Sequence record: DRR378314_606
Length of the DNA: 20,000 bases
Strand: one strand, 5' to 3'
How positions within the stretch are numbered: the stretch's first letter is position 1; every line of letters starts with the position of its first letter. The notes under the pieces were generated by a model. It saw only the letters and a list, made by a program, of their open reading frames with translations, ran no database searches and was not told the origin of the DNA. Of this stretch, positions 2,297 to 20,000 are shown one piece after another. The position numbers and the translations under genes were made by a program.

Positions 2297-2308
2297 GGCA
2301 GATGTAAA

Positions 2309-2850: not shown

Positions 2851-4311
2851 TTATCGCAGACTTTTTTCTTTGATTTTCTGTTGTTCAAAAGCGGAATCGT
2901 ATTCTGGATTGCTTTGGCTTGGAACCTTGGCATTGGTTGTGGCACGCCATTCCATTAGTTTCTTACGGAGTTCCTGTGTTTTATCCGGATTTTGTTCGGC
3001 AACATTATTTTCTTCACTTGGGTCATCTATTAAATTGAAAAGTTCCAACGCGCCATCTTCAAAATATTCATGCAGTTTCCAATCGCCCGAAATAACTACT
3101 GAGCCAGGACGGGTACGGAACAATGGGTCGCGACTACCATCCTGTAAACCGTGGTATTCCTGAAGGTAGATAGGAAAATGAAAGAATAGGTCCCTTTCCA
3201 CTTGGGATTTGTCCTCAAAAATGGGTTTGAGGTCAATTCCGTCCAGTAGCAGAGCCTTTTTCTCTGGGCTTACAATATTTTGTATGGTGGGGTAAAAGTC
3301 CAGATTGCTTACACGGGCGGCAGAGCTGGAATTGGGTTCTATTTTTCCAGGCCATTTTATCAGTAAAGGTACGCGTATTCCTCCTTCATAATAAGAACCT
3401 TTTCCTGCACGTAAGGGGTTTTGTTCGGATATGGCCCTAATGCCACCATTGTCCGAGGTAAATATTACCAAAGTATTCTTTTCCAGTCCGTTTGCTTTTA
3501 GTGAGGAAAGTAGTTTGCCCACGTTTTCATCCATAGAGGCCACCATAGCGGCATAATCGGCCCTGTTTTGTCCATTGGATCCCTTTTTGTCCTTAAATTT
3601 TTCAATCAGTTCCTCTTTACCCATAATTGGGGTATGTACGGTATAGTAGGGGAGGTAGAGAAAAAAGGTGGTGTCCTTGTATTTTTCTACAAAAGAGATG
3701 GCCTCTTTGGTAATGCGGTCCGTTAAATACTCCCCATCGGGGCCATTGGTGATATGATCTATTTTATATGGCGAAAAGTAGCCCCCGCTTCCTGGGTTTC
3801 CTCTGGCACTTCCGCCAACATTTACATCTATCCCCTGTTCTTTAGGGTCGTTCCCTACGTGCCATTTCCCGAAACTTCCGGTAATATATCCGGCCGATTT
3901 AAGCATGTTGGGGAGTGTGTATATGCTGTCATTTAGATGGTCCGTATTTTTTACAGGGACAAGTTTTCGTGTCTTTGGATTGCCCCTATCCGAAGGGCTC
4001 ACTGTATAAACGCCGTGTCGCGGAGTATTAAGTCCGGATAGGAGGCAGGCACGGCTGGGGGCGCAATTTGCCGCTCCTGCGTAAGCATTGTAAAATACCA
4101 TACCTTCTTTGGCCAAAGCGTCCAAATGGGGTGTTTCATAATACTCACTGCCCATAAACCCTAAATCCTTCCAGCCCAAATCATCTACATTTATTAGAAC
4201 TATATTGGGAAGTGCCTTGTTTGGCTCGTTCTCTTTTGGGGATTTGCAGGAGTGTATGGAATAGATTATTGCCAAAACGACAATAATGGCGTGATGTATT
4301 GAGTGCTTCAT
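2851..4311 (-). CDS. Family S1 formylglycine-dependent sulfatase, Cys-type, lipoprotein
   Basis: Motifs are PNIVLINVDDLGW, YETPHLDALA, the signature CAPSRACLLSG, GKWHVG, FTSDNGG and GKGSYYEGGIRVP. The ATG at 4311 gives signal peptide MKHSIHHAIIVVLAIIYSIHSC with a lipobox Cys. The upstream in-frame ATG at 4332 is an alternative start. Confidence 0.93.
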   Translation of the reverse strand: MKHSIHHAIIVVLAIIYSIHSCKSPKENEPNKALPNIVLINVDDLGWKDLGFMGSEYYETPHLDALAKEGMVFYNAYAGAANCAPSRACLLSGLNTPRHGVYTVSPSDRGNPKTRKLVPVKNTDHLNDSIYTLPNMLKSAGYITGSFGKWHVGNDPKEQGIDVNVGGSARGNPGSGGYFSPYKIDHITNGPDGEYLTDRITKEAISFVEKYKDTTFFLYLPYYTVHTPIMGKEELIEKFKDKKGSNGQNRADYAAMVASMDENVGKLLSSLKANGLEKNTLVIFTSDNGGIRAISEQNPLRAGKGSYYEGGIRVPLLIKWPGKIEPNSSSAARVSNLDFYPTIQNIVSPEKKALLLDGIDLKPIFEDKSQVERDLFFHFPIYLQEYHGLQDGSRDPLFRTRPGSVVISGDWKLHEYFEDGALELFNLIDDPSEENNVAEQNPDKTQELRKKLMEWRATTNAKVPSQSNPEYDSAFEQQKIKEKSLR

Positions 4312-4349
4312 ATTTAGGAAGGTATTTGGCATATAACTTTATATCCAGT

Positions 4350-4380: not shown

Positions 4381-4437
4381 ATTTTTAATTACTTTGGGGT
4401 GAGGTATTCTTGCCCCAATGTAATTGATAATAACACC

Positions 4438-5928
4438 ATGACTAAAAAATTTCTCCATTTAGGATTACTTATATTCCTTATTTCCTGTGCATTTGCATGC
4501 AAAAACAAAGGTCAGCTAACTGAGGCCTCCAAAACAGACAGCACTCAGGAAAATGTAGCCAAACCCAATATTATTTACATCTTGGCCGATGACTTGGGTT
4601 ATGGGGATTTAAGTGCCTATGGACAGCAAAAGTTTACAACACCCAACATAGATAAATTGGCTAGGCAAGGAATGCTTTTTACCGAACATTATTCCGGGAG
4701 TACGGTATGTGCCCCGTCTAGATCTGCATTGTTGACAGGTATGCACACAGGACATACCTTTGTACGTGGCAATAAGGAAATACAACCAGAGGGGCAGTAT
4801 CCCATACCCGATAATACCTACACCTTGGCGGAGGCCATGAAAAAAGCTGGCTATGCCACTGGAGTTTTTGGTAAATGGGGGCTAGGATATCCAGGTTCGG
4901 AAGGGGATCCATTGAACCAAGGCTTCGATACTTTTTTTGGATACAATTGCCAACGCCTGGGGCATAATTACTACCCCCGCCACCTATGGGCCAATACGGA
5001 CTCTTTAGTTCTGGAAGAAAATGCAGGAACAAAGAAAGGGATTTATGCACCACAACTTATACATGAAAAAACGCTCGATTTTATTGAGTTCAATAAGGAT
5101 AATTCCTTCTTTCTTTATGTAGCATCTATTATACCACATGCAGAGCTTGCAGCTCCAGAGGAAATCATGAAAAAATACAGAGGTAAATTTCCTCCTGAAA
5201 AAGCTTATGAAGGGGTGGATGATGGACCGGAATACAGAAATGGTCCTTACGAATCACAGAAAGAAACCCATGCCGCATTTGTGTCTATGATTCATATATT
5301 GGACAATCAAGTTGGGGAGATCATGGCCAAATTGGAACAGTTGGGCATTGCCGACAATACCATAGTTATGTTTACCTCGGACAACGGTCCCCACACTGAA
5401 GGAGGTGCCGATCCTGATTATTTTAATAGCAACGGTCCATTTAAGGGTACCAAGCGGGATCTTTATGAAGGAGGAATCCGGGTTCCCTTCATTGTTAAGT
5501 GGCCAGGACATGTTGCCCCTAATACCAGAACCGATCATGTATCTGCATTCTGGGATGTGTTTCCAACATTTGCGGGCATCGCCGATATGGAAGTTCCCAA
5601 TTCCTTGGATGGTGTTTCCTTTTTGCCTACCCTTTTGGGGCAGGACGAAGAACAACAGGAACATGAATATTTGTATTGGGAGTTTCATGAAAAAGGAGGG
5701 CGACAAGCGATCCGAAAAGGGAATTGGAAGGCAGTAAAATATAACGTATTCAATCCGTCCGGTTCGCCAATTGAACTTTACGACCTGAATTCGGACGTGG
5801 GCGAGGAGAATAACTTGGCAAAGGATTATCCGGAAATTGTTGCCGATATGAAATTGCTTTTTAAGGAAGCTAGGACACCGTCTGAAGTTTTTACTTTTGG
5901 TCAGGGGACCTACTTGAATGTAAAATAA
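4438..5928 (+). CDS. Family S1 arylsulfatase-like sulfatase, Cys-type, lipoprotein (tentatively S1_20-like)
   Basis: Motifs are PNIIYILADDLGYGD, TPNIDKLA, CAPSRSALLTGMHTGH, GKWGLG, FTSDNGPH and KRDLYEGGIRVP. The ATG at 4438 gives MTKKFLHLGLLIFLISCAFAC, a lipoprotein signal, and is preferred over the GTG at 4399. The subfamily guess rests on recalled HTGH/GKWGLG motifs only. Confidence 0.93.
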   Translation: MTKKFLHLGLLIFLISCAFACKNKGQLTEASKTDSTQENVAKPNIIYILADDLGYGDLSAYGQQKFTTPNIDKLARQGMLFTEHYSGSTVCAPSRSALLTGMHTGHTFVRGNKEIQPEGQYPIPDNTYTLAEAMKKAGYATGVFGKWGLGYPGSEGDPLNQGFDTFFGYNCQRLGHNYYPRHLWANTDSLVLEENAGTKKGIYAPQLIHEKTLDFIEFNKDNSFFLYVASIIPHAELAAPEEIMKKYRGKFPPEKAYEGVDDGPEYRNGPYESQKETHAAFVSMIHILDNQVGEIMAKLEQLGIADNTIVMFTSDNGPHTEGGADPDYFNSNGPFKGTKRDLYEGGIRVPFIVKWPGHVAPNTRTDHVSAFWDVFPTFAGIADMEVPNSLDGVSFLPTLLGQDEEQQEHEYLYWEFHEKGGRQAIRKGNWKAVKYNVFNPSGSPIELYDLNSDVGEENNLAKDYPEIVADMKLLFKEARTPSEVFTFGQGTYLNVK

Positions 5929-5932
5929 AAAT

Positions 5933-5945
5933 AGTTAGTTTAGTT
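5933..5945 (+). repeat. Intergenic motif AGTTAGTTTAGTT, copy 1
   Basis: This exact 13-mer also occurs at 19977..19989. It lies between the sulfatase stop codon and its hairpin. Confidence 0.7.
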
Positions 5946-5948
5946 TTG

Positions 5949-5985
5949 AAAAAAGAGCCCTTATGTCATATTTGGGGTCCTTTTT
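5949..5985 (+). terminator. Probable intrinsic terminator after the second sulfatase
   Basis: Imperfect inverted repeat AAAAAAGAGCCC-ttatgtcatattt-GGGGTCCTTTTT, starting 20 nt after the stop codon and ending in a T run. Confidence 0.55.
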
Positions 5986-6124
5986 ATCTTTAAGATCTTT
6001 ACTTGTAGTCATTTTTCGTAGCAGATAAGTAATTTGTAGATATGGAAGAGTGTGATTTATTTTTAAATTGAAGTAATAATTTTAGATATTGGGGCTTGTT
6101 TGCTAAATCCTATTATCTAATCTT

Positions 6125-7504
6125 ATGAGAAAACTACTTTTTTGTTTTAGTCTTGTTTCGGTGTTTTTACATTTTCAATACGTTATTGGGCAGTCCCTTC
6201 GCATTAGCGAAAATGGAAGATTTATTGAAAAGTCAAATGCTACGCCTTTCTTTTATCTGGGAGATACGGCTTGGGAATTGTTCCACAGATTGGACATTGG
6301 GGAGGCGGAGTATTATCTAAATAATAGGGCAGATAAAGGTTTTACGGTTATACAAGCAGTTATTTTATCAGAACTGAACGGTATTTCCGTACCTAATGCC
6401 AATGGGGACCTGCCCTTATTCAATAAAGACCCAAAAAGACCCAATGAAGCTTATTTTAAACATGTAGACGCCATAGTGGATAAGGCAAGTTCTTTGGGAT
6501 TGGTTATGGGAATGCTTCCCACCTGGGGCAGTTATTGGAGTTCCCTAAGTGAAAAGGACATCATTTTTACAGCAGAAAGTGCTGAGGAATTTGGACTGTT
6601 TTTAGGGAAAAGATATAAGGATAAACCTGTTATTTGGATATTGGGTGGAGATAGAAATATACGAACGGAAAATGATCGCAAGATTGTGGAGGCAATGGCG
6701 CAAGGGCTGAAGCAGGGGTGTAATGACCAACAGCTTATCACTTTTCATCCCAGGGGACCCGGAATGTCGTCGGATTATTTTCATGATGCCGAATGGCTTG
6801 ATTTTAATATGTATCAATCTTCCCATGGTCAACATGGGCATGACAACGGACTTTATGCAGAGCATGATTATGCCCTAGAGCCTATAAAACCAACCTTGGA
6901 TGGAGAACCGAGATACGAAAGTATACCGGTAGGGTTTTATTTTAAAGGTACGGATCCAAAGGATCGCTTTGACGATTATGACGCACGGCAGGCGGCCTAT
7001 TGGTCGGTTTTTGCAGGGGCTTGCGGACATACCTATGGGAATAATAATATTTGGCAGATGTATTCGCCCGACAATAGTCCAATTATTGGGGCCGCAATAC
7101 CGTGGAAAGATGCCTTGGACCATCCTGGGGCCTTTCAAATGAAACATCTTAGAACCTTAATGGAGGCACGTTCCTTTTCTAAATTGACTCCCAAGCCCGA
7201 GTTGATCAAAAATAGCATGGAAATAAATGGTGAGCCCACAAGGGCGGTATTGGCACTGGATGCCTCTTTTGCAATGATCTATACCCCCAGGGGAAAGGCC
7301 TTTACGGTGGACAAGGGAATGATTTCAGGTTTAAATAAAAAGGCTATTTGGTACGATCCCAGATATGGAGTGTCCCATCATTTGGGCACTTCCGACACTG
7401 ATGGTATTCAGACCTATAAGCCGCCTACTTCTGGAAGAGGGCAGGATTGGATCCTGATCTTGGAAAACGCCGATCTCAATTTGCCAATGCCGGGTTTTCA
7501 TTGA
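6125..7504 (+). CDS. GH140-family apiosidase-like glycoside hydrolase (DUF4038 catalytic domain plus C-terminal beta domain), secreted
   Basis: 459 aa with a Sec-type signal peptide. Motifs PFFYLGDTAW, KGFTVIQAV, WILGGD, ITFHPRG, WLDFNMYQSSHG, KPTLDGEPRYE, GHTYG and C-terminal WYDPR...DWILIL are typical of DUF4038/GH140 proteins such as BT1012. Confidence 0.85.
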   Translation: MRKLLFCFSLVSVFLHFQYVIGQSLRISENGRFIEKSNATPFFYLGDTAWELFHRLDIGEAEYYLNNRADKGFTVIQAVILSELNGISVPNANGDLPLFNKDPKRPNEAYFKHVDAIVDKASSLGLVMGMLPTWGSYWSSLSEKDIIFTAESAEEFGLFLGKRYKDKPVIWILGGDRNIRTENDRKIVEAMAQGLKQGCNDQQLITFHPRGPGMSSDYFHDAEWLDFNMYQSSHGQHGHDNGLYAEHDYALEPIKPTLDGEPRYESIPVGFYFKGTDPKDRFDDYDARQAAYWSVFAGACGHTYGNNNIWQMYSPDNSPIIGAAIPWKDALDHPGAFQMKHLRTLMEARSFSKLTPKPELIKNSMEINGEPTRAVLALDASFAMIYTPRGKAFTVDKGMISGLNKKAIWYDPRYGVSHHLGTSDTDGIQTYKPPTSGRGQDWILILENADLNLPMPGFH

Positions 7505-7538
7505 TTTCCGGCTGCTAATTATAAAGGTTGCTAAGACT

Positions 7539-8138
7539 TTACCCCAAAGAAGACCTTCTTTTTTGTTTTTTGAAATCGAAAAGTAAGAAAAACACAGCTT
7601 CCACTTTGGCACCCAGTTTTTCGGTAAGGATTTTAAAGGCACGGGTAATATGGCCCTCCACTGTTTTTGTAGAGATATTGAGGTATTCGGAGATTTCCGT
7701 ATGGGTTAGCCCCTCCTTTTTATTCATTAAAAATATTTCCTTGCATTTAGAGGGTAAATTGTCAATTTCGGCATTCATTAGTTTTATGAGACCTTCCAAT
7801 TCTACAGGTTCTATTTCCGCCACCACATCAATGGCCTCAAAATATTTTTTTTCCAAATAAAGTACGGGTTTATTTTTTCTATATTGACTTATAAACTCAT
7901 TATAAACAGATTTATACAAATAACTCTTGATGGATAAGTCTGGATTTATTTTTTTTCTTTTGACCCATATTCTAACAAATACATTTTGAACAATATCTTC
8001 GGCCAATGCGGGGTCATTGCATAAGGATTGGGCATATGCGCACAAGCGTTGGTAATATATATCCATTAAGAAATCGTAGGCTTTGCAGTCACCAGAAATT
8101 AATCTTTCGGCTAAATATTGGTTTTTTAGGTGGTCCAT
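7539..8138 (-). CDS. ECF RNA polymerase sigma-70 factor (Bacteroidota PUL type)
   Basis: 199 aa with region 2 AEDIVQNVFVRIW...SIKSYLYKSVYN and region 4 LPSKCKEIFLMNKKEGLTHTEISEYLNISTKTVEGHITRA. It is divergent from a FecR-type gene. Confidence 0.95.
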   Translation of the reverse strand: MDHLKNQYLAERLISGDCKAYDFLMDIYYQRLCAYAQSLCNDPALAEDIVQNVFVRIWVKRKKINPDLSIKSYLYKSVYNEFISQYRKNKPVLYLEKKYFEAIDVVAEIEPVELEGLIKLMNAEIDNLPSKCKEIFLMNKKEGLTHTEISEYLNISTKTVEGHITRAFKILTEKLGAKVEAVFFLLFDFKKQKRRSSLG

Positions 8139-8204
8139 TAAAATTGGTTATTCTCAATATTACAAATTTTTTTTTTTGAATATCGAAAAAAAATACACAA
8201 AAAA

Positions 8205-8233
8205 TAGAGGGGTATGTAAAATTTGAACGTATT
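8205..8233 (+). promoter_or_regulatory. Candidate ECF-sigma-dependent promoter for fecR-susC-susD
   Basis: TAGAGGGGTA...CGTATT lies in an otherwise very AT-rich 118-bp divergent spacer, 23 nt before the fecR ATG. A G-rich -35 with a CGT-containing -10 resembles ECF promoters. This is inference only. Confidence 0.35.
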
Positions 8234-8256
8234 AGATGCATAATTGTTGATTAAAG

Positions 8257-9420
8257 ATGGCCGAAGTAGAAAAAATAATTGTCAAGTTTCTAAATCAGGA
8301 GGCCAATCGTTCCGAGTTGGAAAGATTGGAAGATTTGCTAAAAACGGCTGAAGGGTTGCAAGTCTTTAATAGTCTAGTTAAAACACAATATTTAAGCACA
8401 CTTTCCATGACAGAATACGATGTTGATAAAGCCAAGGAAGCTATAAGGGCTAGACTGAAAAATGGCAGGCGAACAATGAGGATTAACTTATATAGGAGAA
8501 TGGCGGCTGCTGCTTCAGTTATGTTGATACTGGGCCTAGTCTCTTATATGTGGTACAAGACTGAAAAAACAAGCGAAACTGAAATTGTTAAAAAGCCGCA
8601 AGTTATATTAGCTGGTACAGACAAGGCTATACTAACCCTCGGAAATGGTGATGAGGTAGCCTTGGAAAAAGGTAAAAATTTTCAGACTGGAGAGGTTAGT
8701 AGTAATGGGGAGAAATTGGTCTATGCTGAAAAAAAGCATAATAATGATGTTGAAAAAGAACAGTCATTTAATTATTTGACCATTCCTAGGGGAGGTCAGT
8801 TTTTTGTTAAATTATCAGACGGTACGGAAGTTTGGTTGAATTCAGAAACCAAGTTAAAATATCCCGTGACATTCACCGAAGGTCTAACCCGGAAGGTGGA
8901 ACTGATATATGGTGAGGTCTACTTTAAGGTTTCGCCCAGTACTCAGCACAAAGGCGCAGGGTTCCATGTGCTTACAAAATCGCAGGAAATAAACGTTTTG
9001 GGTACAGAATTTAATATAAGAGCCTATAATAATGACGAGGTAATGGCCACCACCCTAGTGGAAGGCAAAATAAGAATTAAAAAAGGTGAAGTCAGTGAAA
9101 CTTTAAAGCCTAATCAACAAGCTAAAATTAGCCAGGAAAGCAATCAAATAGATATTCAGGAAATAGATGTATCTCAGGAAATTTCATGGGTCAACGGATT
9201 ATTTGCCTTCAACGAAAAACCCTTGGAGGAAATATTGACTGTCTTGTCAAGATGGTACGATACGGAGGTGGTCTTTGAGAATGCGAAACAAAAGAAGTTT
9301 GTTTTTACAGGATTATTGGAAAGGACTAAAGCGGTAGAAGATATTCTTAAGCTTATAGAAGCCACGAGTGAGGGGCAGATAAAATTTGAAATTAAAGATA
9401 AAACAATTATTATTAAATAA
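8257..9420 (+). CDS. fecR: FecR-family anti-sigma factor / transmembrane sensor
   Basis: 387 aa with one TM segment (AAAASVMLILGLVSYMWY), FecR motifs LSDGTEVWLNSETKLKYP, GEVYFKV, VLGTEFNI and TTLVEG, and a C-terminal SWVNGLFAF...LEEIL..LSRWYD domain. Confidence 0.95.
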   Translation: MAEVEKIIVKFLNQEANRSELERLEDLLKTAEGLQVFNSLVKTQYLSTLSMTEYDVDKAKEAIRARLKNGRRTMRINLYRRMAAAASVMLILGLVSYMWYKTEKTSETEIVKKPQVILAGTDKAILTLGNGDEVALEKGKNFQTGEVSSNGEKLVYAEKKHNNDVEKEQSFNYLTIPRGGQFFVKLSDGTEVWLNSETKLKYPVTFTEGLTRKVELIYGEVYFKVSPSTQHKGAGFHVLTKSQEINVLGTEFNIRAYNNDEVMATTLVEGKIRIKKGEVSETLKPNQQAKISQESNQIDIQEIDVSQEISWVNGLFAFNEKPLEEILTVLSRWYDTEVVFENAKQKKFVFTGLLERTKAVEDILKLIEATSEGQIKFEIKDKTIIIK

Positions 9421-9424
9421 AAAA

Positions 9425-9463
9425 GGAAAAGGCCAGCACCTTCCACAGCAACGGCCTTTTTCC
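9425..9463 (+). terminator. Stem-loop between fecR and susC (terminator/attenuator or mRNA-stability hairpin)
   Basis: Inverted repeat GGAAAAGGCC-N18-GGCCTTTTTCC immediately after the fecR stop codon. Confidence 0.6.
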
Positions 9464-9508
9464 AAGTAGATCAATTAAAACAATGTTTAACTAAACCATT
9501 ACAAATTT

Positions 9509-12500
9509 ATGAAAATTAAATTAACCAACCGACCACCTTGCCAATTTGGCAAAGTTCTTTTACGCTTTTTTATGAAATCCATTATTTTTCTATTTTGTTC
9601 GATTTCATTTGCACTAAACCCCGTCAATGGGGTAGGCCAAAATGCAGAGATTATTGTCGATTCAGATGTGACCTTGAACGTTAAACAGGTCTTTCGACTA
9701 ATCAATAAGCAGACCGATTATAAGTTTATCTATCGACATGACTTGCTCAAAACCGCGCCGAATATCCAACTCAAGAAGGGAGTGATTAAAGCAGGGGATT
9801 TATTGGATAAAACACTGTCTCCTTTAAGTTTTACTTACAACTTCACAGATGGCTCCACTATTGTAGTGAAAAAAAGTCCAATGAATTCGTCGGAAAGTAA
9901 TTCGGTTGAGGCATTGGACAAGAAAATGCAATTTCAGGTAATGGGACAAGTAACCGATGAAAATAGTACCCCCTTGCCAGGAGCAAACATTGTAGAAAAA
10001 GGTACTACAAATGGTATTCAAGTAGATTTTGACGGTAATTTTGCAATTTCTGTTGACAACGAAAATGCTGTTTTAGTGGTTTCCTATATTGGTTTTGCAA
10101 CCAAAGAAGTGCCAATCAATGGACAGTCCAATATTAGTATTGTTTTGGAGGAGAGTGCAGCAGGCCTAGACGAAGTTGTGGTTATTGGTTATGGTGCCAC
10201 GATAAAGAAAAAAGATTTAACAGGAGCTGTTGCAAGTGCCGATTTGGCCAAGGCTAGCGAATTTCCCAATGTGTCAATAGTTCAAGCGCTTCAAGGAAGT
10301 GTGGCAGGGTTAAACGTTGGTGCTACTACCACCGCGGGTCAGAACCCCACAATATCCATTAGAGGACAAAGTACTTTATCTAGTGATGCTGGTTCCAATG
10401 CCCCACTTATTGTATTGGACGGAATTATTTATAGAGGTAATTTAGTTGATTTGAACCCCTCGGATATTGCCTCTATAGATGTGTTGAAGGATGCAAGTTC
10501 GGCCGCAATTTACGGTTCACAAGCATCAAATGGTGTGATATTGATCAGCACCAAGAAAGGACAAACTTTGATTAAGCCTACCATTGAATATAGTACCAGT
10601 TATTCCATTCAGTCTCCTTCAAATGTGTTACTGCCAATGAGGGCTGCAGAATTGGAGGAGTTTTATCCTGACATATTTTGGGCAGAGGGTGGAAGATTGG
10701 CACCAGACTACCTTCAAGTAAATCCGGATTATGTATGGCAAAATAACTTTAAAACAAATGAAATATCCCAGGGTTATGCCAATGGGGTGGACACCCCTTG
10801 GTGGGATCTTTTTACAGGGAACGGTTTTGTAAATACGCACAATCTTAGTATAAGGGGTAAAACAGAAGCTATAGGATACTTTGTCTCAGGTGGTATTACC
10901 GATCAACAGGCATATCTGAAAAATGATGACTATACCCGTTATAATTTTAGGGTCAACTTTGATGCTAAAATTACGGACTGGCTTAATATTGGTACTCAAA
11001 CTTTTGTTTCTATTGGTGATTATTCAGGGGTTACAGCGGGTACGGGTACACCATTTTATTTACAACCTTGGGCGCCGATTCGTGACGTAAATGGTGAAAT
11101 TATTCCACAACCTGAAGGCGGGTCATTAAATCCTTATTTAATAATAGAACAGGATGATTCAGAGGTGAACAAGAATTTCTTTAGTAATTTATATGCTGAT
11201 ATTAAATTGCCGTTGAAAGGTCTTTCATATAGGCTTAATTATTCAAATAACTATAGAACACAGAATAATTCCCGGTTTAACCCCTCTGCCAATAATTTTA
11301 CTGGTGGTGCCACCAAAAGCTATGGGGAAGCAAGGGATTGGACCTTGGATAATATTGTAACCTACCAAGGGACATTTAATCAAGATCATAATTTTAATAT
11401 GACTTTGCTTTATGGTGTGGAAAAAAGAAACATCAACTCATTCAGTGCGGAGGCCAAACAATTCGGTATAGATTTTTTGGGATATAATAGATTGCAGGCT
11501 GGTGATCCAAGTCAAAACGTTGTAACCTCAAACAAAGAAGAAGAAAGTAGTTTATATTCCATGGCCCGTCTTTTATATGATTACAAAAACAAATACTATA
11601 TCACGGGAACCGTTAGGCGTGATGGGTTTTCTGGCTTTGGTAAAAATGATAAGACAGCTGTCTTTCCAACCGTGGGTCTGGGATGGGTTGTAAGCAACGA
11701 AAGCATGTTCGAAAATAGTTCTTGGTTGAATTTCCTAAAACTAAGGGCCTCGTATGGCCAATCGGGAAGAAGGGGTCTAGGTCGATATGATACTGCTGCA
11801 ATTATTAGTACTGGACCTAGTTATGTCTTTGGTGACGGTGGGCAAAGTTTTCAAGGGCAATCTATTAGTTCCCTTCCCAACGATGCCTTAGGATGGGAAA
11901 CAACAACCGGAACCAATTTAGGTTTGGATTTTTCGGTTATCAATTCCAAAGTTAGTGGTAATGTTGAATATTATAAAAATGATACTGAAAATATTCTCTA
12001 CGCCATTCAGCTACCTAACTTAACAGGCTTTAATTCAATTAACAGTAATATAGCAAAAGTATCCAATCATGGGTTGGAATTTACCCTTAGTAGCAATTTA
12101 TTGAATAGTAAAGACTGGAATTGGGTAGCGTCAATAAACTTTAGTAGCTATCGAAATAAAATAGACTCTATATTAGGTCCGGAAAATGACAATGATGGTG
12201 ATGGTAAGGAAGATGACTTGGTAGGAAGTGGACTTTTTATTGGAGAACCGCAAAACGTTATTTATGATTACGAAATTACTGGCATGTGGCAATTGGCCGA
12301 TGAAGCCGATGGGTCTATTTATAGTGGGTTTTTTCCGGGAACCTATAAACTTCGTGATCTCGATGATAGTGGTGATATTTCTTCCTTGAATGATAGAAAG
12401 ATATTGGGTTACGTGGATCCTGCCTATCGTTTTGGTGTTAGTAATACCCTTAATTATAAGAATCTCAGTCTATACGTTTTCGTTAATTCCATTCAAGGAG

Positions 12501-12901
12501 GCAGCGATTATTATTTCGGAGACGATGCCCCTCATAGTAATGGAAGTTGGAACAAAAGAGACCAATTATCTTACAGCAATATACCAAGAGGTGCATGGGA
12601 TTATTGGATGCCCGAGAACCCAAATGCAAAATACCGAAGGTTGGATTTGGCATCTCAGTTTGGAGGTACACCATATACCCAAAGGAATTTTGTGCGCTTG
12701 CAAGATGTATCATTATCCTACATTTTTCCAGAGCAACTGAAAGATGCATTGCACGTCAGCAACTTAAAGTTATTTATATCTGGCAAAAACTTGGCAACTT
12801 GGACCAAATGGAACGGTGTGGACCCTGAAACCGGGGCGGGATTTTCTCCTGGTTCTCCACTATTAAGAAGCTATTCCCTAGGACTAAATGTTGAATTTTA
12901 A
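9509..12901 (+). CDS. susC: SusC/RagA-family TonB-dependent transporter with N-terminal STN signalling extension (TonB transducer)
   Basis: 1130 aa. It has an extended signal, an STN-like segment (VKQVFRLINKQTDYKFIY), a CarboxypepD_reg-like domain (PLPGANIVEKGTTNG...DFDGNF), LDEVVVIGYG, plug motifs PLIVLDG and DIASIDVLKDASSAAIYGSQASNGVILISTKKG, LKLRASYG and LGWETT, and ends in Phe (GLNVEF). Confidence 0.97.
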   Translation: MKIKLTNRPPCQFGKVLLRFFMKSIIFLFCSISFALNPVNGVGQNAEIIVDSDVTLNVKQVFRLINKQTDYKFIYRHDLLKTAPNIQLKKGVIKAGDLLDKTLSPLSFTYNFTDGSTIVVKKSPMNSSESNSVEALDKKMQFQVMGQVTDENSTPLPGANIVEKGTTNGIQVDFDGNFAISVDNENAVLVVSYIGFATKEVPINGQSNISIVLEESAAGLDEVVVIGYGATIKKKDLTGAVASADLAKASEFPNVSIVQALQGSVAGLNVGATTTAGQNPTISIRGQSTLSSDAGSNAPLIVLDGIIYRGNLVDLNPSDIASIDVLKDASSAAIYGSQASNGVILISTKKGQTLIKPTIEYSTSYSIQSPSNVLLPMRAAELEEFYPDIFWAEGGRLAPDYLQVNPDYVWQNNFKTNEISQGYANGVDTPWWDLFTGNGFVNTHNLSIRGKTEAIGYFVSGGITDQQAYLKNDDYTRYNFRVNFDAKITDWLNIGTQTFVSIGDYSGVTAGTGTPFYLQPWAPIRDVNGEIIPQPEGGSLNPYLIIEQDDSEVNKNFFSNLYADIKLPLKGLSYRLNYSNNYRTQNNSRFNPSANNFTGGATKSYGEARDWTLDNIVTYQGTFNQDHNFNMTLLYGVEKRNINSFSAEAKQFGIDFLGYNRLQAGDPSQNVVTSNKEEESSLYSMARLLYDYKNKYYITGTVRRDGFSGFGKNDKTAVFPTVGLGWVVSNESMFENSSWLNFLKLRASYGQSGRRGLGRYDTAAIISTGPSYVFGDGGQSFQGQSISSLPNDALGWETTTGTNLGLDFSVINSKVSGNVEYYKNDTENILYAIQLPNLTGFNSINSNIAKVSNHGLEFTLSSNLLNSKDWNWVASINFSSYRNKIDSILGPENDNDGDGKEDDLVGSGLFIGEPQNVIYDYEITGMWQLADEADGSIYSGFFPGTYKLRDLDDSGDISSLNDRKILGYVDPAYRFGVSNTLNYKNLSLYVFVNSIQGGSDYYFGDDAPHSNGSWNKRDQLSYSNIPRGAWDYWMPENPNAKYRRLDLASQFGGTPYTQRNFVRLQDVSLSYIFPEQLKDALHVSNLKLFISGKNLATWTKWNGVDPETGAGFSPGSPLLRSYSLGLNVEF

Positions 12902-12916
12902 TCAAAAAAGAAAAAA

Positions 12917-14554
12917 ATGAAAAATCTCATATATATATTTTCGTTGTTCATGATAATAACTTCATGCAATGAAGACCAGTGGTTAGAGGAGGAAGCTTTT
13001 AGTTTTTATACTCCAGACAATTCCTTTACTACCCCCGAACAGTTGGATATAGCCGTAGTCCAACTATACAGAAATGTAAGTAATATGTTATATGGTAGTG
13101 GTGCCAACGGAGATGCATTTACATTTCAATACACCACGGATGTAGGGTATGATGCTATTGCCCCAAACCATGAACTTAATTCATGGGGAGATCAGATACG
13201 CCCAGAAAAAAGACAAATCGGAAGGTTTTGGAACGATTTATATCAACAGATTTATGATGCAAACGTCATATTGAACAGAATAGATAATATTGAATTTATG
13301 TCCGAGGATCAACGAAATATTAAAAAAGGAGAGGCTAAATTTTTTAGGGCATTTGCCTATAGGGGATTAGTAACTATGTATGGTGGTGTTCCTTTAGTTT
13401 TAGAGGAAACCGATTCGCCAAAAAGAGATTTCGTAAGAGCTTCGGCAGCAGAGGTCTGGGCTCAAATCATTGAAGATCTTACCGATGCCGCCCAATTTTT
13501 ACCAGGAGCAGACGAAGTGGAACAGGATGGACGAATAGCTAAAGGAGCAGCCTTTCACTTGTTGTCAGAAGCATATATTGTAATAAAGGACTATCCGAAA
13601 GCGATAACCGCAGCGTCTGAAGTAATAGACAATTTAGGTTATTCTCTAATGAAAGACCGCTTTGGAACTAGAAGTGATGAGCCAGGTGATGTGTATTGGG
13701 ACCTTTTTAGAAGGGGCAATCAGAATAGGGGATCTGGTAATACCGAATCAATTTATGTGTCACAATATGAATATCTTGTAGCTGGAGGTGAAATTGAAGA
13801 CAACCTTGCAAGGTTCCTGGTACCCCTATACTGGCAATTAAAGGGTAACAGTGATGGCTTAAACCTTTTTGTTGGACCAACGCAGAAGTATGGTGGACGT
13901 GGTATAGGCTGGTGGGCCGCATCCGATTATATGCTTAATCAAGTTTGGCATGACTCAGGAAATGATATGAGAAATTCTGAGTACAATATAATACGTGATA
14001 TTGTCTCGGACAATCCGGAATCTGCTTATTATGGACAAAAGATTATCGAAAGTGGCTCTATTACGGAGTTTAGTGATCCATTAAAACGTTGGTGGAGCGC
14101 TATTTTTGCTAAAAGTACCCCAATTAATAACTTTCCAGCCGAGGTGGGGGATAATCAAGCCAATAGCTCTTATCGTGATCGTTATGTAATGCGATTGGCA
14201 GAAACATTCTTATTAAGGGCGGAAGCACATTACCTGAATGGTAATTTGGATGCTGCTGCCGACGACATTAACGAAATTCGAGAACGTTCAATGGCAAGTC
14301 CAATTACTTCAAGTGATGTTACTATGGAGTTTATTTTGGACGAAAGGGCTAGGGAGCTTTTTGTAGAAGAAAACAGATTGATGACCTTAATGAGAACAGG
14401 AACTCTAGTAGAACGTGTGCGGGCATTTAATCCCATGCATAACGGGACTTTGGGAACGAATCAGATTTTTGACTATCAGAATCTATGGCCTATCCCGAAT
14501 AGTGAAATTGAAAGGAATACAGAAGCCAAATTGGATCAAAATCCCGGATATTAG
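12917..14554 (+). CDS. susD: SusD/RagB-family surface glycan-binding lipoprotein
   Basis: 545 aa with lipobox IITSC and motifs GEAKFFRAFAY..LV..YGGVPL, MRLAETFLLRAEA, ILDERARELFVEENR and LWPIP..EIERN...QNPGY. It starts 15 bp after susC. Confidence 0.97.
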   Translation: MKNLIYIFSLFMIITSCNEDQWLEEEAFSFYTPDNSFTTPEQLDIAVVQLYRNVSNMLYGSGANGDAFTFQYTTDVGYDAIAPNHELNSWGDQIRPEKRQIGRFWNDLYQQIYDANVILNRIDNIEFMSEDQRNIKKGEAKFFRAFAYRGLVTMYGGVPLVLEETDSPKRDFVRASAAEVWAQIIEDLTDAAQFLPGADEVEQDGRIAKGAAFHLLSEAYIVIKDYPKAITAASEVIDNLGYSLMKDRFGTRSDEPGDVYWDLFRRGNQNRGSGNTESIYVSQYEYLVAGGEIEDNLARFLVPLYWQLKGNSDGLNLFVGPTQKYGGRGIGWWAASDYMLNQVWHDSGNDMRNSEYNIIRDIVSDNPESAYYGQKIIESGSITEFSDPLKRWWSAIFAKSTPINNFPAEVGDNQANSSYRDRYVMRLAETFLLRAEAHYLNGNLDAAADDINEIRERSMASPITSSDVTMEFILDERARELFVEENRLMTLMRTGTLVERVRAFNPMHNGTLGTNQIFDYQNLWPIPNSEIERNTEAKLDQNPGY

Positions 14555-14631
14555 AACCTAATATGGAATGGTTAGTTTTATATGGAAGAGATAATTGGTT
14601 AATATTTTACCATTTAATTAAAAGTATAGTT

Positions 14632-14642
14632 TTGAGTTAGTT
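14632..14642 (+). repeat. Intergenic motif TTGAGTTAGTT, copy 2
   Basis: This exact 11-mer also occurs at 19974..19984. It lies 7 nt before the GGACTGG hairpin. Confidence 0.65.
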
Positions 14643-14649
14643 GGAAAAT

Positions 14650-14678
14650 GGACTGGATTTGATACCAGTCCTTTTTTT
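14650..14678 (+). terminator. Intrinsic terminator-like hairpin downstream of susD
   Basis: Perfect 7-bp stem GGACTGG-atttgata-CCAGTCC followed by T7. Confidence 0.8.
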
Positions 14679-14697
14679 AAATAAATATAAGTATACA

Positions 14698-17118
14698 ATG
14701 AATTTTAGTAAAAAAAAATTACTCATTTTTTTATTGATCGGCCTTAGTAAGTTATTTTCCCAATCACCACGAACGTTACCTGATTCATATAATATTGTTT
14801 GGCACGAACAAAGTAAAAATAGTTCAGAATCAATGCCATTGGGTGGTGGCGATATTGGATGTAACGTATGGGTAGAAAACGGTGAGGTTCTACTTTATGT
14901 TCAGCGCAGTGGCAGTTTGAGTGAAAACGGAGAGTTTTTAAAAATGGGCCGCTTCCGCATAAACTTGAATCCAAATCCATTTGATGGAGAAAATAGCTTC
15001 AAGCAAGAATTAAAATTAATCGACGGATTTATTGAGGTTGAATCAGAGAAAAAGGTTGGTCCAAATAGTTTAAATGCCAAAATTAAATTATGGGTCGATG
15101 TATATCGACCAATAGTACACATAGATGTAGAATCAAATCAAAAAATAAATGCCACTGTTGAATATGAAAGTTGGCGGACAGAAGATAAAGAATTGACATT
15201 CGGAAAGGAACGCTTCGGGGCATTTGGCCTTGAAGGATATCCCGGAAAAGTTATCAGGACCAAAGACATTTTTGAACAAACAACCGATGGAATTTTATTT
15301 TATCACCGCAACCCGGACCAAAAACCTGTGCCTGAGGCATTTGTAAAACTTCAGGGGTTGGAGGCATATGCTGATGAAATAAAAGATGACCTAAAAAATC
15401 GAACATTTGGAGGATTGTTATTTGGCGAGGGCTTTATTGCAAATGGAACCAAGATTGGAATGTATCAGAATACTCCCTTTAAATCATGGGGATTAAAAAG
15501 TAACACCGCAAAAAGGAAACATAAAATTAGTATTGCAACACACATTGCACAAGCTGAAACAGTTTCCGAATGGAAAGCCAAGCTTTTAAATACGGTTGAA
15601 TCTTCTAAAGCTGACCATCAGAAATCAATTGAGAATTCCGTATTGTGGTGGAACGATTTCTGGAACCGAAGTTATATTGTGATCCAACCTGGAAATTCGA
15701 ATCCTAACGATTCCATTTGGCAAATTGGGCGCAACTATCAATTGTTCCGTTACCAGTTGGGGGGAAATGCTTTTGGCGAATACCCTACAAAATTTAACGG
15801 TGGTAATCTAACTTTTGATTCTGGTCTGGTAGATGAAGAAAAAGCGCACGGCCCAGATTGGCGTCAATGGGGCGGATCCGTGTTTACGGCACAAAACCAG
15901 AGATTGCTTTATTGGCCAATGCTAAAATCGGGTGATTTCGATGCCATATTGCCTCAGTTTGAACTTTACCTAAAAGGACTGCCAGGTGCAACTGCACGTG
16001 TAAAAGAACATTTTGGCCATGATGGGGCAGTTTATTGTGAATATACGAGTGTTCCAGGAATAGCCTTTGGTGATGGCTGGGGATGGCAGAATGATAAGAA
16101 TTATAGAATACGTGGGGAGGAAACTCCCTTTGGCGATCCTCGGGCAAATGGGGCTAAAGCATATAATGATCTGGTAGAAAAAGGGGTAATGGCAAATGGA
16201 TCGATAGCCTATCATTGGGAGTCGCAGATTGAACATGCCTATATGATCCTGGAGTATCACCGATTTACCGGAGCAGATATAACAAGGTATATGCCTTTCA
16301 TTGAAAAGGCTCTAATTTTTTTCGATGAACACTACCGGGCACGACAAAAAATGCGTAATGCTAAAGAATTGGATGAAAACGGAAAACTTGTAATTTTCCC
16401 TTCTACTTCTTGCGAATCGTATAGAGGAGCAAAAAACCCTGTTGACGTACTTTCGGGTCTTAATGCATGCTTGACCACCATGCTGACCTTAAGCGAAAAA
16501 TTACTCCCTTCGAAAAGAAAAGAATACTATCGGGAATATTTAAACCGCATTCCCAATTATGCATTTGAAGAGGTCAATGGGCTACGAACAATTAAGCCAG
16601 CAGAAAGCTGGATCGAAGAGTCCAATCAAGAGCTGCCACAATTCTACCCGCTGTTTCCTTTTAATCAGTTTAAAATTGGTGATACGGAGATTGAATCATT
16701 CAAAAATTCTTATGATTTAGCTCCTGCGTTCCGAAAGGGAACTATTATGAGCTGGCATCAGGACGGTATTCAATTTGCTAGGATGGGAATGACGGACGCT
16801 GCGGCAGATTATAATTCAAAGAAATTGAAAAATTCAGAACGTCGATATCCCACATTCTGGGGCCCTGGACATGACTGGGTTCCCGATCATAACTGGGGAG
16901 GTTCTGGTATGATCGGACTACAAGAAATGTTGATGCAATGTTTTGGAAACCAAATACTGTTGTTTCCGGCGTGGCCAAAAACCTGGGATGTGAATTTTAA
17001 GTTGCATGCACCCAAAAATACTATTGTTGAAGGAATATTCAAAGACGGTAAAATCGAGGAACTAAAAGTGTTTCCTGAAAGTAGACGGGCCGACGTACGT
17101 ATAGTTAATCATAAATAG
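14698..17118 (+). CDS. DUF5703-like secreted protein, putative GH95-related (alpha/alpha)6-barrel glycoside hydrolase
   Basis: 806 aa from the ATG at 14698, with signal peptide MNFSKKKLLIFLLIGLSKLFS. SMPLGGGDIGCNVW, YQLFRY, QNQRLLYW and PDHNWGGSGMIGLQEMLMQ..ILLFPAWP parallel GH95 motifs in the neighbouring gene. The TTG start at 14641 overlaps the terminator hairpin and is unlikely. Confidence 0.75.
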   Translation: MNFSKKKLLIFLLIGLSKLFSQSPRTLPDSYNIVWHEQSKNSSESMPLGGGDIGCNVWVENGEVLLYVQRSGSLSENGEFLKMGRFRINLNPNPFDGENSFKQELKLIDGFIEVESEKKVGPNSLNAKIKLWVDVYRPIVHIDVESNQKINATVEYESWRTEDKELTFGKERFGAFGLEGYPGKVIRTKDIFEQTTDGILFYHRNPDQKPVPEAFVKLQGLEAYADEIKDDLKNRTFGGLLFGEGFIANGTKIGMYQNTPFKSWGLKSNTAKRKHKISIATHIAQAETVSEWKAKLLNTVESSKADHQKSIENSVLWWNDFWNRSYIVIQPGNSNPNDSIWQIGRNYQLFRYQLGGNAFGEYPTKFNGGNLTFDSGLVDEEKAHGPDWRQWGGSVFTAQNQRLLYWPMLKSGDFDAILPQFELYLKGLPGATARVKEHFGHDGAVYCEYTSVPGIAFGDGWGWQNDKNYRIRGEETPFGDPRANGAKAYNDLVEKGVMANGSIAYHWESQIEHAYMILEYHRFTGADITRYMPFIEKALIFFDEHYRARQKMRNAKELDENGKLVIFPSTSCESYRGAKNPVDVLSGLNACLTTMLTLSEKLLPSKRKEYYREYLNRIPNYAFEEVNGLRTIKPAESWIEESNQELPQFYPLFPFNQFKIGDTEIESFKNSYDLAPAFRKGTIMSWHQDGIQFARMGMTDAAADYNSKKLKNSERRYPTFWGPGHDWVPDHNWGGSGMIGLQEMLMQCFGNQILLFPAWPKTWDVNFKLHAPKNTIVEGIFKDGKIEELKVFPESRRADVRIVNHK

Positions 17119-17144
17119 GAAAGTAAAATAGGTAAATAGATATT

Positions 17145-19733
17145 ATGAAAATAAAAGTAGGAATTATAGCTTATTTGCTCTTTGTTTATAATGTATTTGG
17201 GCAAACCAATTCAAACATCCTTCAGTATGATAAACCTGCCGAGGTATGGACGGAGGCCTTACCCATAGGGAATGGATATATGGGAGGAATGGTCTTTGGT
17301 GATCCCTTCAAGGAGAGGATTCAACTCAACGAGTCAACACTGTATAGTGGTGATCCGAACAGGAAATATGAAAATTTTAATATTCGCGAGGATTATAATG
17401 AAATTATGGCATTGTTTGATCAGGGTAAATATGCCGAAGGTCAGGAAATGGTTCAAAAAAAATGGTTGGGTCGCCCGCAGGATTTGTACCAGCCCATGAG
17501 TGATCTCTGGATAGATATGGCACATACCGGAAAGGTCTCCAACTACCAAAGAGTATTGGATATTTCCAAAGCCGTACATAAAGTGTCGTATGCCATTGGT
17601 AATACTAAATACGAACGGGAAGTTTTTGCCAGTTATCCAGATCACATATTTGTTATTAAGCTTTCGGCCAATGGACCGGATCAAATGAGCGGAGCGATAT
17701 CTTTTTCCACGATTCACGAACCGACTATGGAAGTTGGTGGCTCAAATAATGAACTTTACCTCAATGCACAGGTACCTGGATTTGCACTGAGAAGAACCCT
17801 TGAGCACGTGGAAAACTATCAGGACGAGCATAAATATCCAGAAATATATAATAAGGATCGTAGTAGAAAGCCTATTGCCAAACAGATTCTATACCATGAT
17901 GAGGTGGATGGGTTAGGCATGTACTTTCAATCTCGTTTAATAGTTGATCACGAGGGTGGTGAAGTAGTGTACATCGATGGGAAGTTAACGTTTACGAATG
18001 TCGATGAAATGGTAATAAAGCTTACAGCGGCTACAAGTTTTACAGCTTTCGACGAAAGCCCTATTAGTAAAGAATTGCCTGAACAAAGGGTTAAGTCATA
18101 TCTTAAAGGGGTACTGAATTCCAATTATGAGAAAATTAAAGAACGTCATATTGCGGACTACACTTCTCTGTTTGATCGAGTCGATCTTGAAATAAACAAA
18201 GTCGGGAAACGGTCAAATCTGCCCACAGACGAACGGATCATGCGCTACAAAGAGGGTGGTGATGAAAATCTCGCAGCCTTATTTTTTCAGTACGGGCGGT
18301 ATTTGATGATTTCGGGCTCCAGGCCTGGAGGCCAACCACTTAATTTACAGGGAATTTGGAATGATAAACTTATACCACCATGGGCCAGTGCCTATACAAT
18401 GAATATTAATATGGAAATGAATTACTGGCCTGCGGAGGTCACAAATCTCTCGGAATGCCATGAGCCATTTTTCACATCTGTAAAGGAGTTGTCGGAAAAT
18501 GGGGCAAAAGTGGCACGCTCAATGTATGGTAATTCTGGATGGTTGGCCAACCACAATATGTCCATTTGGCGGAATTCTGGGCCTGTTGATTCCTGTGCCT
18601 GCTCATTTTGGCCAGTAGCTTCGGGTTGGCTGGTTAGCCATTTTTGGGAACATTATCTTTTCACGGGTAATGAGGAATTTCTTAGGGAGGAAGCCTACCC
18701 ATTACTTAAGGGAGCAGTGCTTTTTTACAAAGATTGGCTGGTTCCGAATCAAGACGGTTTTTTGGTAACACCTGTAGGTCATTCGCCTGAACAGAGTTTT
18801 TTATATGGGGAAGGAGAAAGCTCAACTTTAAGTCCAGGGCCAACGATGGATATGGCCTTAATTAAGGAAAGCTTTAGTCGTTATTTGCAATCCCTGGACA
18901 TTTTGGGAATTGAGGATGCCGAATTGAAGAATGAAATAATGGAAAAACAAAGTCGATTGTTACCTTATCAAATAGGGAAATACGCACAGCTTCAAGAATG
19001 GCAGTTCGACTTTGAAGATAAGGAAATTCACCATCGACATATTTCCCATTTGTATCCTTTCCATCCTGGAAACCAAATTACACCAACAACTAGCCCGGAA
19101 TTGACAAAGGCTGTAAAGCAAGTATTGTTAAGAAGAGGAGATCAGGCAACAGGTTGGTCCATGGGATGGAAAGTAAATATGTGGGCCCGACTTTATGACG
19201 GAGACAAGTCTTTGGAGATTATGTCAAAATTAATAAATCTAGTAAAAGAGAATGATCCCAAATTTAAGGGTTCTGGCAGTTATCCAAATATGTTTGATGC
19301 GCATCCACCTTTTCAGATAGATGGTAATTTTGGTGCTACAGCGGGTATCGCTGAAATGCTGCTACAATCTCATGATGGTTTTGTTCATTTACTTCCTGCT
19401 TTGCCTACTAAATGGAAACAAGGGAATGTTACGGGTCTAAAAGCGCGCGGAGATTTCCAAATTGACATAACTTGGAAAAGTAATTCTATAAAGGAAGCGA
19501 AAATTGTGGCCAATAAAGGCGGAGTGCTGCCAATTAGAAGTTCAGTAGCATTGGATGTTAAGGGAGGGCAATTGATGAGGGAAAAGACACCCAATGATTT
19601 ATTGAGTTCAATGGATTCAGGACCATTTCTGGATCATAAGAAAACACTATTACCTCAAATAGAGGTTCCAGTCTTTTATGAGTATTTCATCGAAACAGAA
19701 AAAGGGGACACAATAACGTTGATAGCGAAATAA
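17145..19733 (+). CDS. GH95 alpha-L-fucosidase / alpha-L-galactosidase, secreted
   Basis: 862 aa with a signal peptide and motifs W.EALPIGNG.MGGMVFG, ERIQLNE.TLYSG, FQYGRYLMISGSR, NLQGIWN, YTMNINMEMNYW, SPE, HRHISHL, TGWSMGWK..MWARL and FDAHPPFQIDGNFGATAGIAEMLLQSH. Confidence 0.96.
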   Translation: MKIKVGIIAYLLFVYNVFGQTNSNILQYDKPAEVWTEALPIGNGYMGGMVFGDPFKERIQLNESTLYSGDPNRKYENFNIREDYNEIMALFDQGKYAEGQEMVQKKWLGRPQDLYQPMSDLWIDMAHTGKVSNYQRVLDISKAVHKVSYAIGNTKYEREVFASYPDHIFVIKLSANGPDQMSGAISFSTIHEPTMEVGGSNNELYLNAQVPGFALRRTLEHVENYQDEHKYPEIYNKDRSRKPIAKQILYHDEVDGLGMYFQSRLIVDHEGGEVVYIDGKLTFTNVDEMVIKLTAATSFTAFDESPISKELPEQRVKSYLKGVLNSNYEKIKERHIADYTSLFDRVDLEINKVGKRSNLPTDERIMRYKEGGDENLAALFFQYGRYLMISGSRPGGQPLNLQGIWNDKLIPPWASAYTMNINMEMNYWPAEVTNLSECHEPFFTSVKELSENGAKVARSMYGNSGWLANHNMSIWRNSGPVDSCACSFWPVASGWLVSHFWEHYLFTGNEEFLREEAYPLLKGAVLFYKDWLVPNQDGFLVTPVGHSPEQSFLYGEGESSTLSPGPTMDMALIKESFSRYLQSLDILGIEDAELKNEIMEKQSRLLPYQIGKYAQLQEWQFDFEDKEIHHRHISHLYPFHPGNQITPTTSPELTKAVKQVLLRRGDQATGWSMGWKVNMWARLYDGDKSLEIMSKLINLVKENDPKFKGSGSYPNMFDAHPPFQIDGNFGATAGIAEMLLQSHDGFVHLLPALPTKWKQGNVTGLKARGDFQIDITWKSNSIKEAKIVANKGGVLPIRSSVALDVKGGQLMREKTPNDLLSSMDSGPFLDHKKTLLPQIEVPVFYEYFIETEKGDTITLIAK

Positions 19734-19970
19734 TATTCTTGTTAATGAATCTTACGTACATTTTTTTACCAAATATCAAATAATGGAATTTGGCTTAGAA
19801 TTATCTTAATTCCTTGGTTGAACTGGGTAGTAGCACGCCACGTATTTTTAACCTAGCGAAACATCATTTGTAGCCATTACTACAATCTGAAATTGACGTA
19901 AATCCTAATTTACAAAAAAAATTATGGTTATTGATTTATTGAACGGTAGATAGATTGCATTATTTTTTTA

Positions 19971-19990
19971 GAGTTGAGTTAGTTTAGTTG
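19971..19990 (+). repeat. Intergenic motif GAGTTGAGTTAGTTTAGTTG, copy 3 (longest)
   Basis: It contains both the 13-mer of copy 1 and the 11-mer of copy 2, and is followed by CAAAAGGAAC at the window edge. Confidence 0.7.
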
Positions 19991-20000
19991 CAAAAGGAAC

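Follow-up and report, generated by a model that had tools for sequence, protein, structure and literature searches.

A recurrent AGTT-repeat element upstream of terminator hairpins at susD 3' ends in marine Bacteroidota

A 20,000-nt stretch of DNA from sequence record DRR378314_606 (the window) was identified by an open reading frame (ORF) map and a Pfam scan as a polysaccharide utilisation locus (PUL) of Arenibacter (Flavobacteriaceae). An original prediction had described a GTTAGTT(TAGTT) motif, followed by an A-run and a hairpin, at the 3' ends of its genes. It had proposed that the motif acts as the seed of small RNAs (sRNAs) derived from 3' untranslated regions (3' UTRs) and pairs with the leader of susC. 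The observation was largely right, and the specific susC-seed mechanism was unsupported. Enrichment across related loci showed that the module of motif, A-run and terminator hairpin at the 3' ends of PUL genes is real, and we consider it very probable that it is a conserved functional element. It is apparently an undescribed cis-element tied to the 3' ends of susD genes in Flavobacteriaceae and a few other marine Bacteroidota, and it probably acts at the RNA level.

Arrangement and recurrence of the AGTT element

The motif strings were confirmed in place in the window: AGTTAGTTTAGTT at 5933–5945, TTGAGTTAGTT at 14632–14642 and GAGTTGAGTTAGTTTAGTTG at 19971–19990. An A-run follows every copy, as predicted. 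The module itself was confirmed, although an array of AGTT units with the core AGTTAGTT captures it better than GTTAGTT(TAGTT). The copies and the associated features are the following.

5933–5948, plus strand: copy 1, three AGTT units (AGTTAGTT-T-AGTT, then TTG), beginning 5 nt past the sulfatase stop codon
5949–5985, plus strand: A-run of copy 1 (5949–5954), a stem-loop that was weak in the fold test, and a T-run (5981–5985)
14571–14577, plus strand: lone extra GTTAGTT unit, 17 nt past the susD stop codon, with no adjoining hairpin
14628–14644, plus strand: copy 2, AGTT-TTG-AGTTAGTT-GG, in the susD 3' region, 74 nt past the susD stop codon
14645–14678, plus strand: A-run of copy 2 (14645–14648), terminator hairpin (14650–14671) and T-run (14672–14678)
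19971–19995, plus strand: copy 3, AGTT-G-AGTTAGTT-T-AGTT-GC, with its A-run (19992–19995); the hairpin region lies beyond the window end
about 19780–19935, plus strand: remnant of a susD 3' end without an open frame, homologous in an alignment to the susD ends of two other Arenibacter loci (L001 and L011)
9489–9496, plus strand: AACTAAAC in the susC leader, the proposed target; its link with the motif is unsupported

Terminator-like hairpins had been predicted behind copies 1 and 2. This held for copy 2, where the hairpin at 14650–14671 is strong, but not for copy 1, where the structure at 5950–5985 is weak. The copy 2 hairpin has 7 bp, five of them G-C pairs, and a T7 run, and it ranked top in the terminator scan of the window. 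Its predicted folding energy was −17.2 kcal/mol (z −3.75), and none of 200 shuffled sequences folded equally well. It has the features of an intrinsic (Rho-independent) terminator and lies inside the operon, between susD and the gene of a DUF5703 protein. Copy 3 had been assigned to the 3' end of the GH95 gene; it actually lies downstream of the susD 3' remnant. Since the segment at 19780–19935 is such a remnant, copies 2 and 3 are both susD-downstream modules. The presence of a susD 3' remnant behind GH95 is a trace of an earlier rearrangement.

Related loci were collected in a one-genome-per-species scan with the DUF5703 protein. The scan yielded 22 loci, of which 16 were from Bacteroidota, and the 15 long ones were used (L001–L015). 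The identity of susD was assigned by Pfam in the window, L001, L002, L004, L006 and L015 only; in the other loci it was judged from gene size and order, supplemented in L007, L009, L010 and L013 by nucleotide homology to the susCD genes of the window. L002 ends within a partial susD. A possible second susD of L013 (19379–20494) showed no motif and was left out of later counts. Some hairpins were called with a simple finder and by eye.

Exact AGTTAGTT occurred at 16 sites in 676,118 nt (the window and the 15 Bacteroidota loci, both strands). Half of these (8/16) fell inside only 550 nt, namely the 15 segments of at most 45 nt that precede susD-downstream hairpins. Seven of the 15 segments held the core (Fisher p = 2e-21, in a test that was defined post hoc). 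The numbers of AGTT units in the segments of at most 45 nt before the hairpins of 14 susD terminators were 3, 3, 3, 4, 5, 4, 2, 2, 1, 0, 0, 0, 0 and 0, whereas the background in intergenic DNA was 0.206 units per 45 nt (125 in 27,285 nt). Counted likewise, copy 1 had 3 units and copy 3 had 4. A terminator hairpin was present downstream of susD in all 14 complete regions examined.

Arenibacter (window, L001, L011), Ulvibacterium (L004) and Maribacter (L006) all carry the module where susD borders on the DUF5703 gene. At this boundary, the flanking intergenic DNA and the hairpin sequences could not be aligned between genera. The module was also found after a non-orthologous susD in L015 (uncultured Bacteroidia), where the next gene encodes a GH43 enzyme. 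A degenerate version, AGTT-TGGTTAGTT, follows another non-orthologous susD in L002 (Draconibacterium), with a URO-D-like gene next to it. Together with copies 1 and 3, the orthologous set, L015 and L002 make at least five independent contexts. TTAGTT was invariant in 8/8 aligned modules. The module consists of two to five C-free AGTT units spaced 4–7 nt apart, with the end of the array 2–8 nt before the A-run, the hairpin and the T-run. All nine modules are in the sense orientation of the gene that precedes them, immediately 5' of the A-run.

Inside the window alone, the motif was only modestly unusual, and it is its placement that stands out. GTTAGTT had 4 matches compared with 2.2 expected, and at least 4 were reached in 36/200 shuffles; all 4 were intergenic and on the plus strand. 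GTTTAGTT had 3 matches compared with 0.95 expected (at least 3 in 11/200 shuffles), and GAGTTAGTT, with one mismatch allowed, occurred at the expected count (122/200 shuffles). The 12 intergenic regions of the window (1116 nt) were also shuffled as a set. One 8-mer with at least two G/C common to at least 3 of the 12 regions was obtained in 7.8% of 1000 shuffles, and two such 8-mers, which is the observed state, in 1.4%.

Possible functions of the element

The element occurs strictly on the sense strand and at a fixed position next to the terminator, and the motif is kept while the hairpin sequence changes. A role at the RNA level is favoured for these reasons. We tentatively hypothesized, short of holding it for probable, that the element is not an antisense seed but a platform for protein binding or for processing. 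As alternatives to its sRNA model, the original prediction had listed recognition by an RNA-binding protein or antiterminator and a signal for RNase processing, and these stay fully viable. The repeated AGUU units in the susD 3' UTR would serve as a landing pad for a single-strand RNA-binding protein, with the RRM-1 (Rbp) proteins of Bacteroidota as candidate binders, or for a ribonuclease. A factor sitting at the foot of the terminator would set the read-through from susCD into the downstream enzyme genes or, alternatively, the survival of the susCD 3' end. Processing at the array would also release a short fragment consisting of the motif and the hairpin. Because the number and the spacing of the units vary, we infer additive protein binding, or nuclease entry, over a fixed seed. 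According to the accessible part of one preprint, RbpB of Bacteroides thetaiotaomicron binds single-stranded RNA and shifts a probe with three motif copies made of G, U and A only (bioRxiv 10.1101/2021.04.27.441718). The available portions of a second paper describe 26 RbpB peaks in 3' UTRs from cross-linking and immunoprecipitation, and an effect of RbpB on PUL expression (PMC11697453).

Several observations weigh against a platform at the susCD terminator. The RbpB motif given in the accessible portions of this literature differs from the AGTT motif. The predicted unpaired probability of the core was 0.08–0.50 in seven susD 3' regions and 0.94 in copy 1. The core was no more accessible than the rest of the 3' region, which favours neither the platform nor the sRNA model. 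Copy 1 follows a sulfatase gene and not susD. Its structure (approximately 5950–5985) had a folding energy of −10.6 kcal/mol (z −0.31), 67/200 shuffles were as good, and it was not among the sites listed by the terminator scan of the window. Five of the nine modules share one orthologous position and are thus not independent. The motif was missing after susD in 6/15 of the pre-hairpin segments (L008, L009, L010, L012, the second susD of L007 and, nearly, L013, which keeps one AGTT unit only), so it is dispensable for termination as such. It was weak or absent after susD in loci of Cyclobacteriaceae, Reichenbachiella, Marinilabiliaceae and Sunxiuqinia, and at the motif-poor susD ends the hairpin begins 17–28 nt past the stop codon. 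The mechanism is, for this organism, wholly one that we infer.

The first alternative is the sRNA model itself, in which a 3' UTR-derived sRNA would use the AGUU repeats as a seed on susC translation initiation regions, for feedback or for prioritisation across PULs. We consider it unlikely. The architecture of a conserved, putatively unstructured stretch, a terminator hairpin and a U-tail matches that of 3' UTR-derived sRNAs. Copy 2 lies in the susD 3' region and shares its terminator, and the modules of L001, L004, L006, L015 and L002 do likewise. There is also a precedent in B. thetaiotaomicron, where sRNAs of the FopS family act near the susC start codon to repress translation and RbpB antagonises them, as described in the available part of PMC11697453. 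The proposed target was confirmed: the 8-nt complement AACTAAAC lies at 9489–9496, 12 nt before the susC ATG at 9509 (positions −20 to −13), and it occupies the same position in L001 and L011. However, the whole block is 78–83% identical between these loci, so conservation of the string says little. AACTAA is common in A-rich intergenic DNA, at approximately one per kb (about 28 matches in plus orientation in 27.8 kb), and a single occurrence in an 88-nt leader is therefore unremarkable. No complement to the motif was found in the susC leaders of L004 and L015. In Maribacter, the spacer between the anti-sigma gene and susC (L006 4608–4660) carries both AACTAAAC and AACTAATCC. These complements are suggestive, but they are not above background and lie approximately 150 nt upstream of the ATG, outside the initiation region.

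Pairing was predicted with susC and the other genes within each locus as targets. The susC initiation region was not the preferred partner; its RNAduplex rank was 3/11, 3/11, 8/11, 2/11, 7/10, 11/12, 2/12 and 1/10 in the individual loci. Between 8.5 and 78% of 200 shuffled leaders (mononucleotide shuffles, composition-matched) paired at least as well as the real susC leader. Both the ranking and the shuffles placed the proposed pairing at chance level. A variable number of repeat units is, moreover, unusual for a seed.

The susC start region itself showed further features. The SusC orthologues (window 9509–9575, L004, L006, L008 and L012) have an N-terminal extension of approximately 20 residues before the signal peptide, and a CAAATTT-ATG start context is common to several of them. 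The first ATG is probably the true susC start, since distant orthologues share both this context and the extension. In Arenibacter, the spacer from the anti-sigma gene to susC contains a conserved, strong hairpin with A- and T-runs (window 9430–9462, L001 4820–4852). The corresponding spacers of L004 (Ulvibacterium) and L006 (Maribacter) hold counterpart hairpins of different sequence. Given its place in front of susC, this hairpin may act as an attenuator or as a bidirectional terminator.

A second alternative is that the motif lacks a regulatory role of its own and is a passive upstream portion of a terminator cassette. The cassette would move together with susD 3' ends whenever susCD pairs are duplicated or exchanged among PULs, and the motif may then provide a short homology anchor for these exchanges. 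The susC barrel and susD were replaced between the window and L001, nucleotide homology with L001 resumes at window position 14629, which is the 5' edge of the motif, and copy 3 follows a susD remnant left by rearrangement. All of this agrees with a travelling cassette. Yet the hairpins differ completely between genera and the AGTT core stays, whereas co-inheritance would conserve both or neither. The motif is also found after unrelated susD genes (L015, L002) and after a sulfatase gene, and neutral AT-rich DNA would not keep TTAGTT invariant across genera. A merely passive role is doubtful on these grounds.

A DNA-level function, as an internal promoter for the enzyme genes or as a direct-repeat operator for a transcription factor, appears improbable. 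The TAGTTT part resembles the −7 box of Bacteroidota, for which the accessible part of PMC7641319 quotes the consensus TAnnTTTG, and copy 1 (5941–5948) and copy 2 (14627–14634) each have an exact TAnnTTTG that overlaps the motif or adjoins it. The units also recur with a 10-nt period in L004 and L006. However, these two copies are the only ones of the nine modules with an exact −7 box, none of the nine has a TTG 17–23 nt upstream, and a transcript starting just past the motif would run into a strong terminator. The Bacteroidota housekeeping promoter, with a −7 TAnnTTTG and a −33 TTTG/TTG at a distance of approximately 19–21 nt, was accordingly rejected as a candidate. Strict sense orientation and the constant placement beside the hairpin are more in keeping with RNA than with DNA.

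That the motif is a by-product of chance or composition in AT-rich, T/G-skewed intergenic DNA is very improbable: shuffles reach the 7- to 9-mer counts of the window alone, but the positional enrichment across loci, the invariant core in all eight aligned modules and the shuffles of the intergenic set argue against it.

Relation to known systems and significance

No paper describing the motif was found and Rfam gave no match, in agreement with the original prediction, which knew of no described function. In the window, Rfam 15 gave no match even when E values of up to 1 were admitted, and a permissive search of L004, L006 and L015 gave nothing at the modules. One unrelated match below threshold was obtained at L006 16750–16811 (24.1 bits compared with a gathering score of 100). 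Literature searches with AGUUAGUU, GUUAGUUU or UAGUUAGU gave no bacterial context among the matches listed, and searches of the Term-seq and Bacteroidota literature nothing relevant among the matches listed. No susD-downstream motif was found in the accessible portions of two Zobellia papers (PMC7641319, PMC5613140) and of a B. thetaiotaomicron transcriptome paper (PMC7366714).

The closest comparison is with FopS/GibS and RbpB. As far as the available portions of the sources describe them, these form, like the AGTT element, a multicopy PUL-linked RNA element of Bacteroidota. A single-strand RNA-binding protein takes part in that system, whereas for the AGTT element such a protein is only proposed. 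The FopS sRNAs are independent genes with their own promoters and are conserved within Bacteroidaceae, according to the accessible part of PMC11697453. In contrast, and compared by description, the AGTT element lies in susD 3' ends, occurs in Flavobacteriaceae and pairs with susC at chance level. An own promoter of the FopS type (sigma-ABfr, TTTG ... TAnnTTTG) was not found at the modules; where the −7 box is present (2/9) it overlaps the motif.

The element was also compared with RNA systems of other bacteria. MalH, NarS, CpxQ and SroC are reportedly 3' UTR-derived sRNAs of enterobacteria. Like these, the AGTT element is conserved and immediately precedes the intrinsic terminator of its parental mRNA, where a transport operon ends. 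The enterobacterial sRNAs have a contiguous seed and demonstrated targets, and they depend on Hfq and RNase E. The AGTT element, in contrast, is a variable array of 4-nt units without a standout target. The Hfq-binding module of sRNAs consists of a U-rich stretch before the terminator hairpin and a 3' U-tail, which jointly serve as a platform for protein binding. The AGTT element has a similar layout, but with a defined AGUU unit instead of a merely U-rich stretch. Binding sites of TRAP and HutP are (G/U)AG repeats beside a terminator, with 9–11 triplets for TRAP and two sets of three for HutP. The AGTT element likewise places repeated UAG/GAG triplets, separated by short U-rich spacers, just 5' of a terminator. 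It differs in having just three to five triplets at irregular distances (4–7 nt from start to start). An attenuator of the TRAP/HutP type was rejected because the triplets are too few and irregular, and no competing or antiterminator structure appeared in the folds. Relative to an ordinary intrinsic terminator behind susD, the AGTT repeat is an addition, missing from about half of the susD terminators examined. Bacteroides have been reported to be without Hfq and CsrA, in the part of PMC13370968 that is available.

An element that recurs across genera at the boundary of the highly expressed susCD genes and the enzyme genes offers a concrete starting point, since it is open to mutation, to use as bait for its binding factor and to genome-wide searches. 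Should it control read-through or stability, this would account for the setting of the ratio of SusCD to enzymes. Should it give rise to an RNA or a protein sponge, PULs would be connected with one another through it. To our knowledge, FopS/RbpB in gut Bacteroides is the only worked-out case of how the many PULs of such bacteria are ranked and balanced post-transcriptionally. It is conceivable, as a long shot, that a post-transcriptional network of PULs in marine Flavobacteriaceae centres on the AGUU tag of susCD 3' ends and parallels FopS/RbpB, but with mRNA 3' ends as its material. In that event, fragments of motif and hairpin, or intact 3' UTRs, would titrate a shared RNA-binding protein or, alternatively, pair with the A-rich leaders of other PULs, and the expression of one PUL would re-rank the others.

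Locus context and minor observations

The genes of the window, as obtained from the ORF map and Pfam, are the following.

2851–4332, minus strand: sulfatase
4399–5928, plus strand: sulfatase, stop codon at 5928
6125–7504: apiosidase-like hydrolase
7539–8138, minus strand: sigma factor of the ECF family
8257–9420: FecR-type anti-sigma factor
9509–12901, plus strand: SusC; the module of copy 2 would end the susC-susD transcript
12917–14554, plus strand: SusD
14698 (ATG)–17118: DUF5703 protein
17145–19733: GH95

At 74–2773 (minus strand), adjoining the sulfatases, Pfam detected genes for the molybdopterin-binding and 2Fe-2S subunits of an enzyme of the xanthine dehydrogenase type.

The closest genome locus found was L001 of Arenibacter aquaticus, whose DUF5703 protein was 92% identical. 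DNA identity with L001 was 92.8% over window positions 14629–19832, and L001 diverges past 19832. SusC of the window and of A. aquaticus were near-identical over approximately the first 230 residues and 37% identical overall, and the SusD proteins were 23% identical. The flanks of this stretch had 78–93% DNA identity to L001. The stretch (window 10047–14629, L001 5438–9929) looks like a swap of a cassette of susC barrel and susD, with the right junction at the 5' edge of the motif.

A single AGTTAGTT was observed in L006 (16469–16998, minus strand), downstream of a gene for a VIT/TonB-plug protein; it precedes a long bidirectional hairpin, rich in A and T, by approximately 30 nt. This instance is not associated with susD and has a looser layout. 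The Cyclobacteriaceae locus L010 (19296–20128) has a tandem array of units of approximately 55 nt, and each unit is capable of forming a hairpin with a T-run behind it. The DUF5703 gene of L011 (10001–10788) matched only residues 6–207 of the query and a regulator gene follows soon after, which suggests a deletion of the rest of the DUF5703 gene and of GH95. In L001 (12448–15035), GH95 was split into two frames by the ATG-only ORF calling, and the gene may carry a frameshift.

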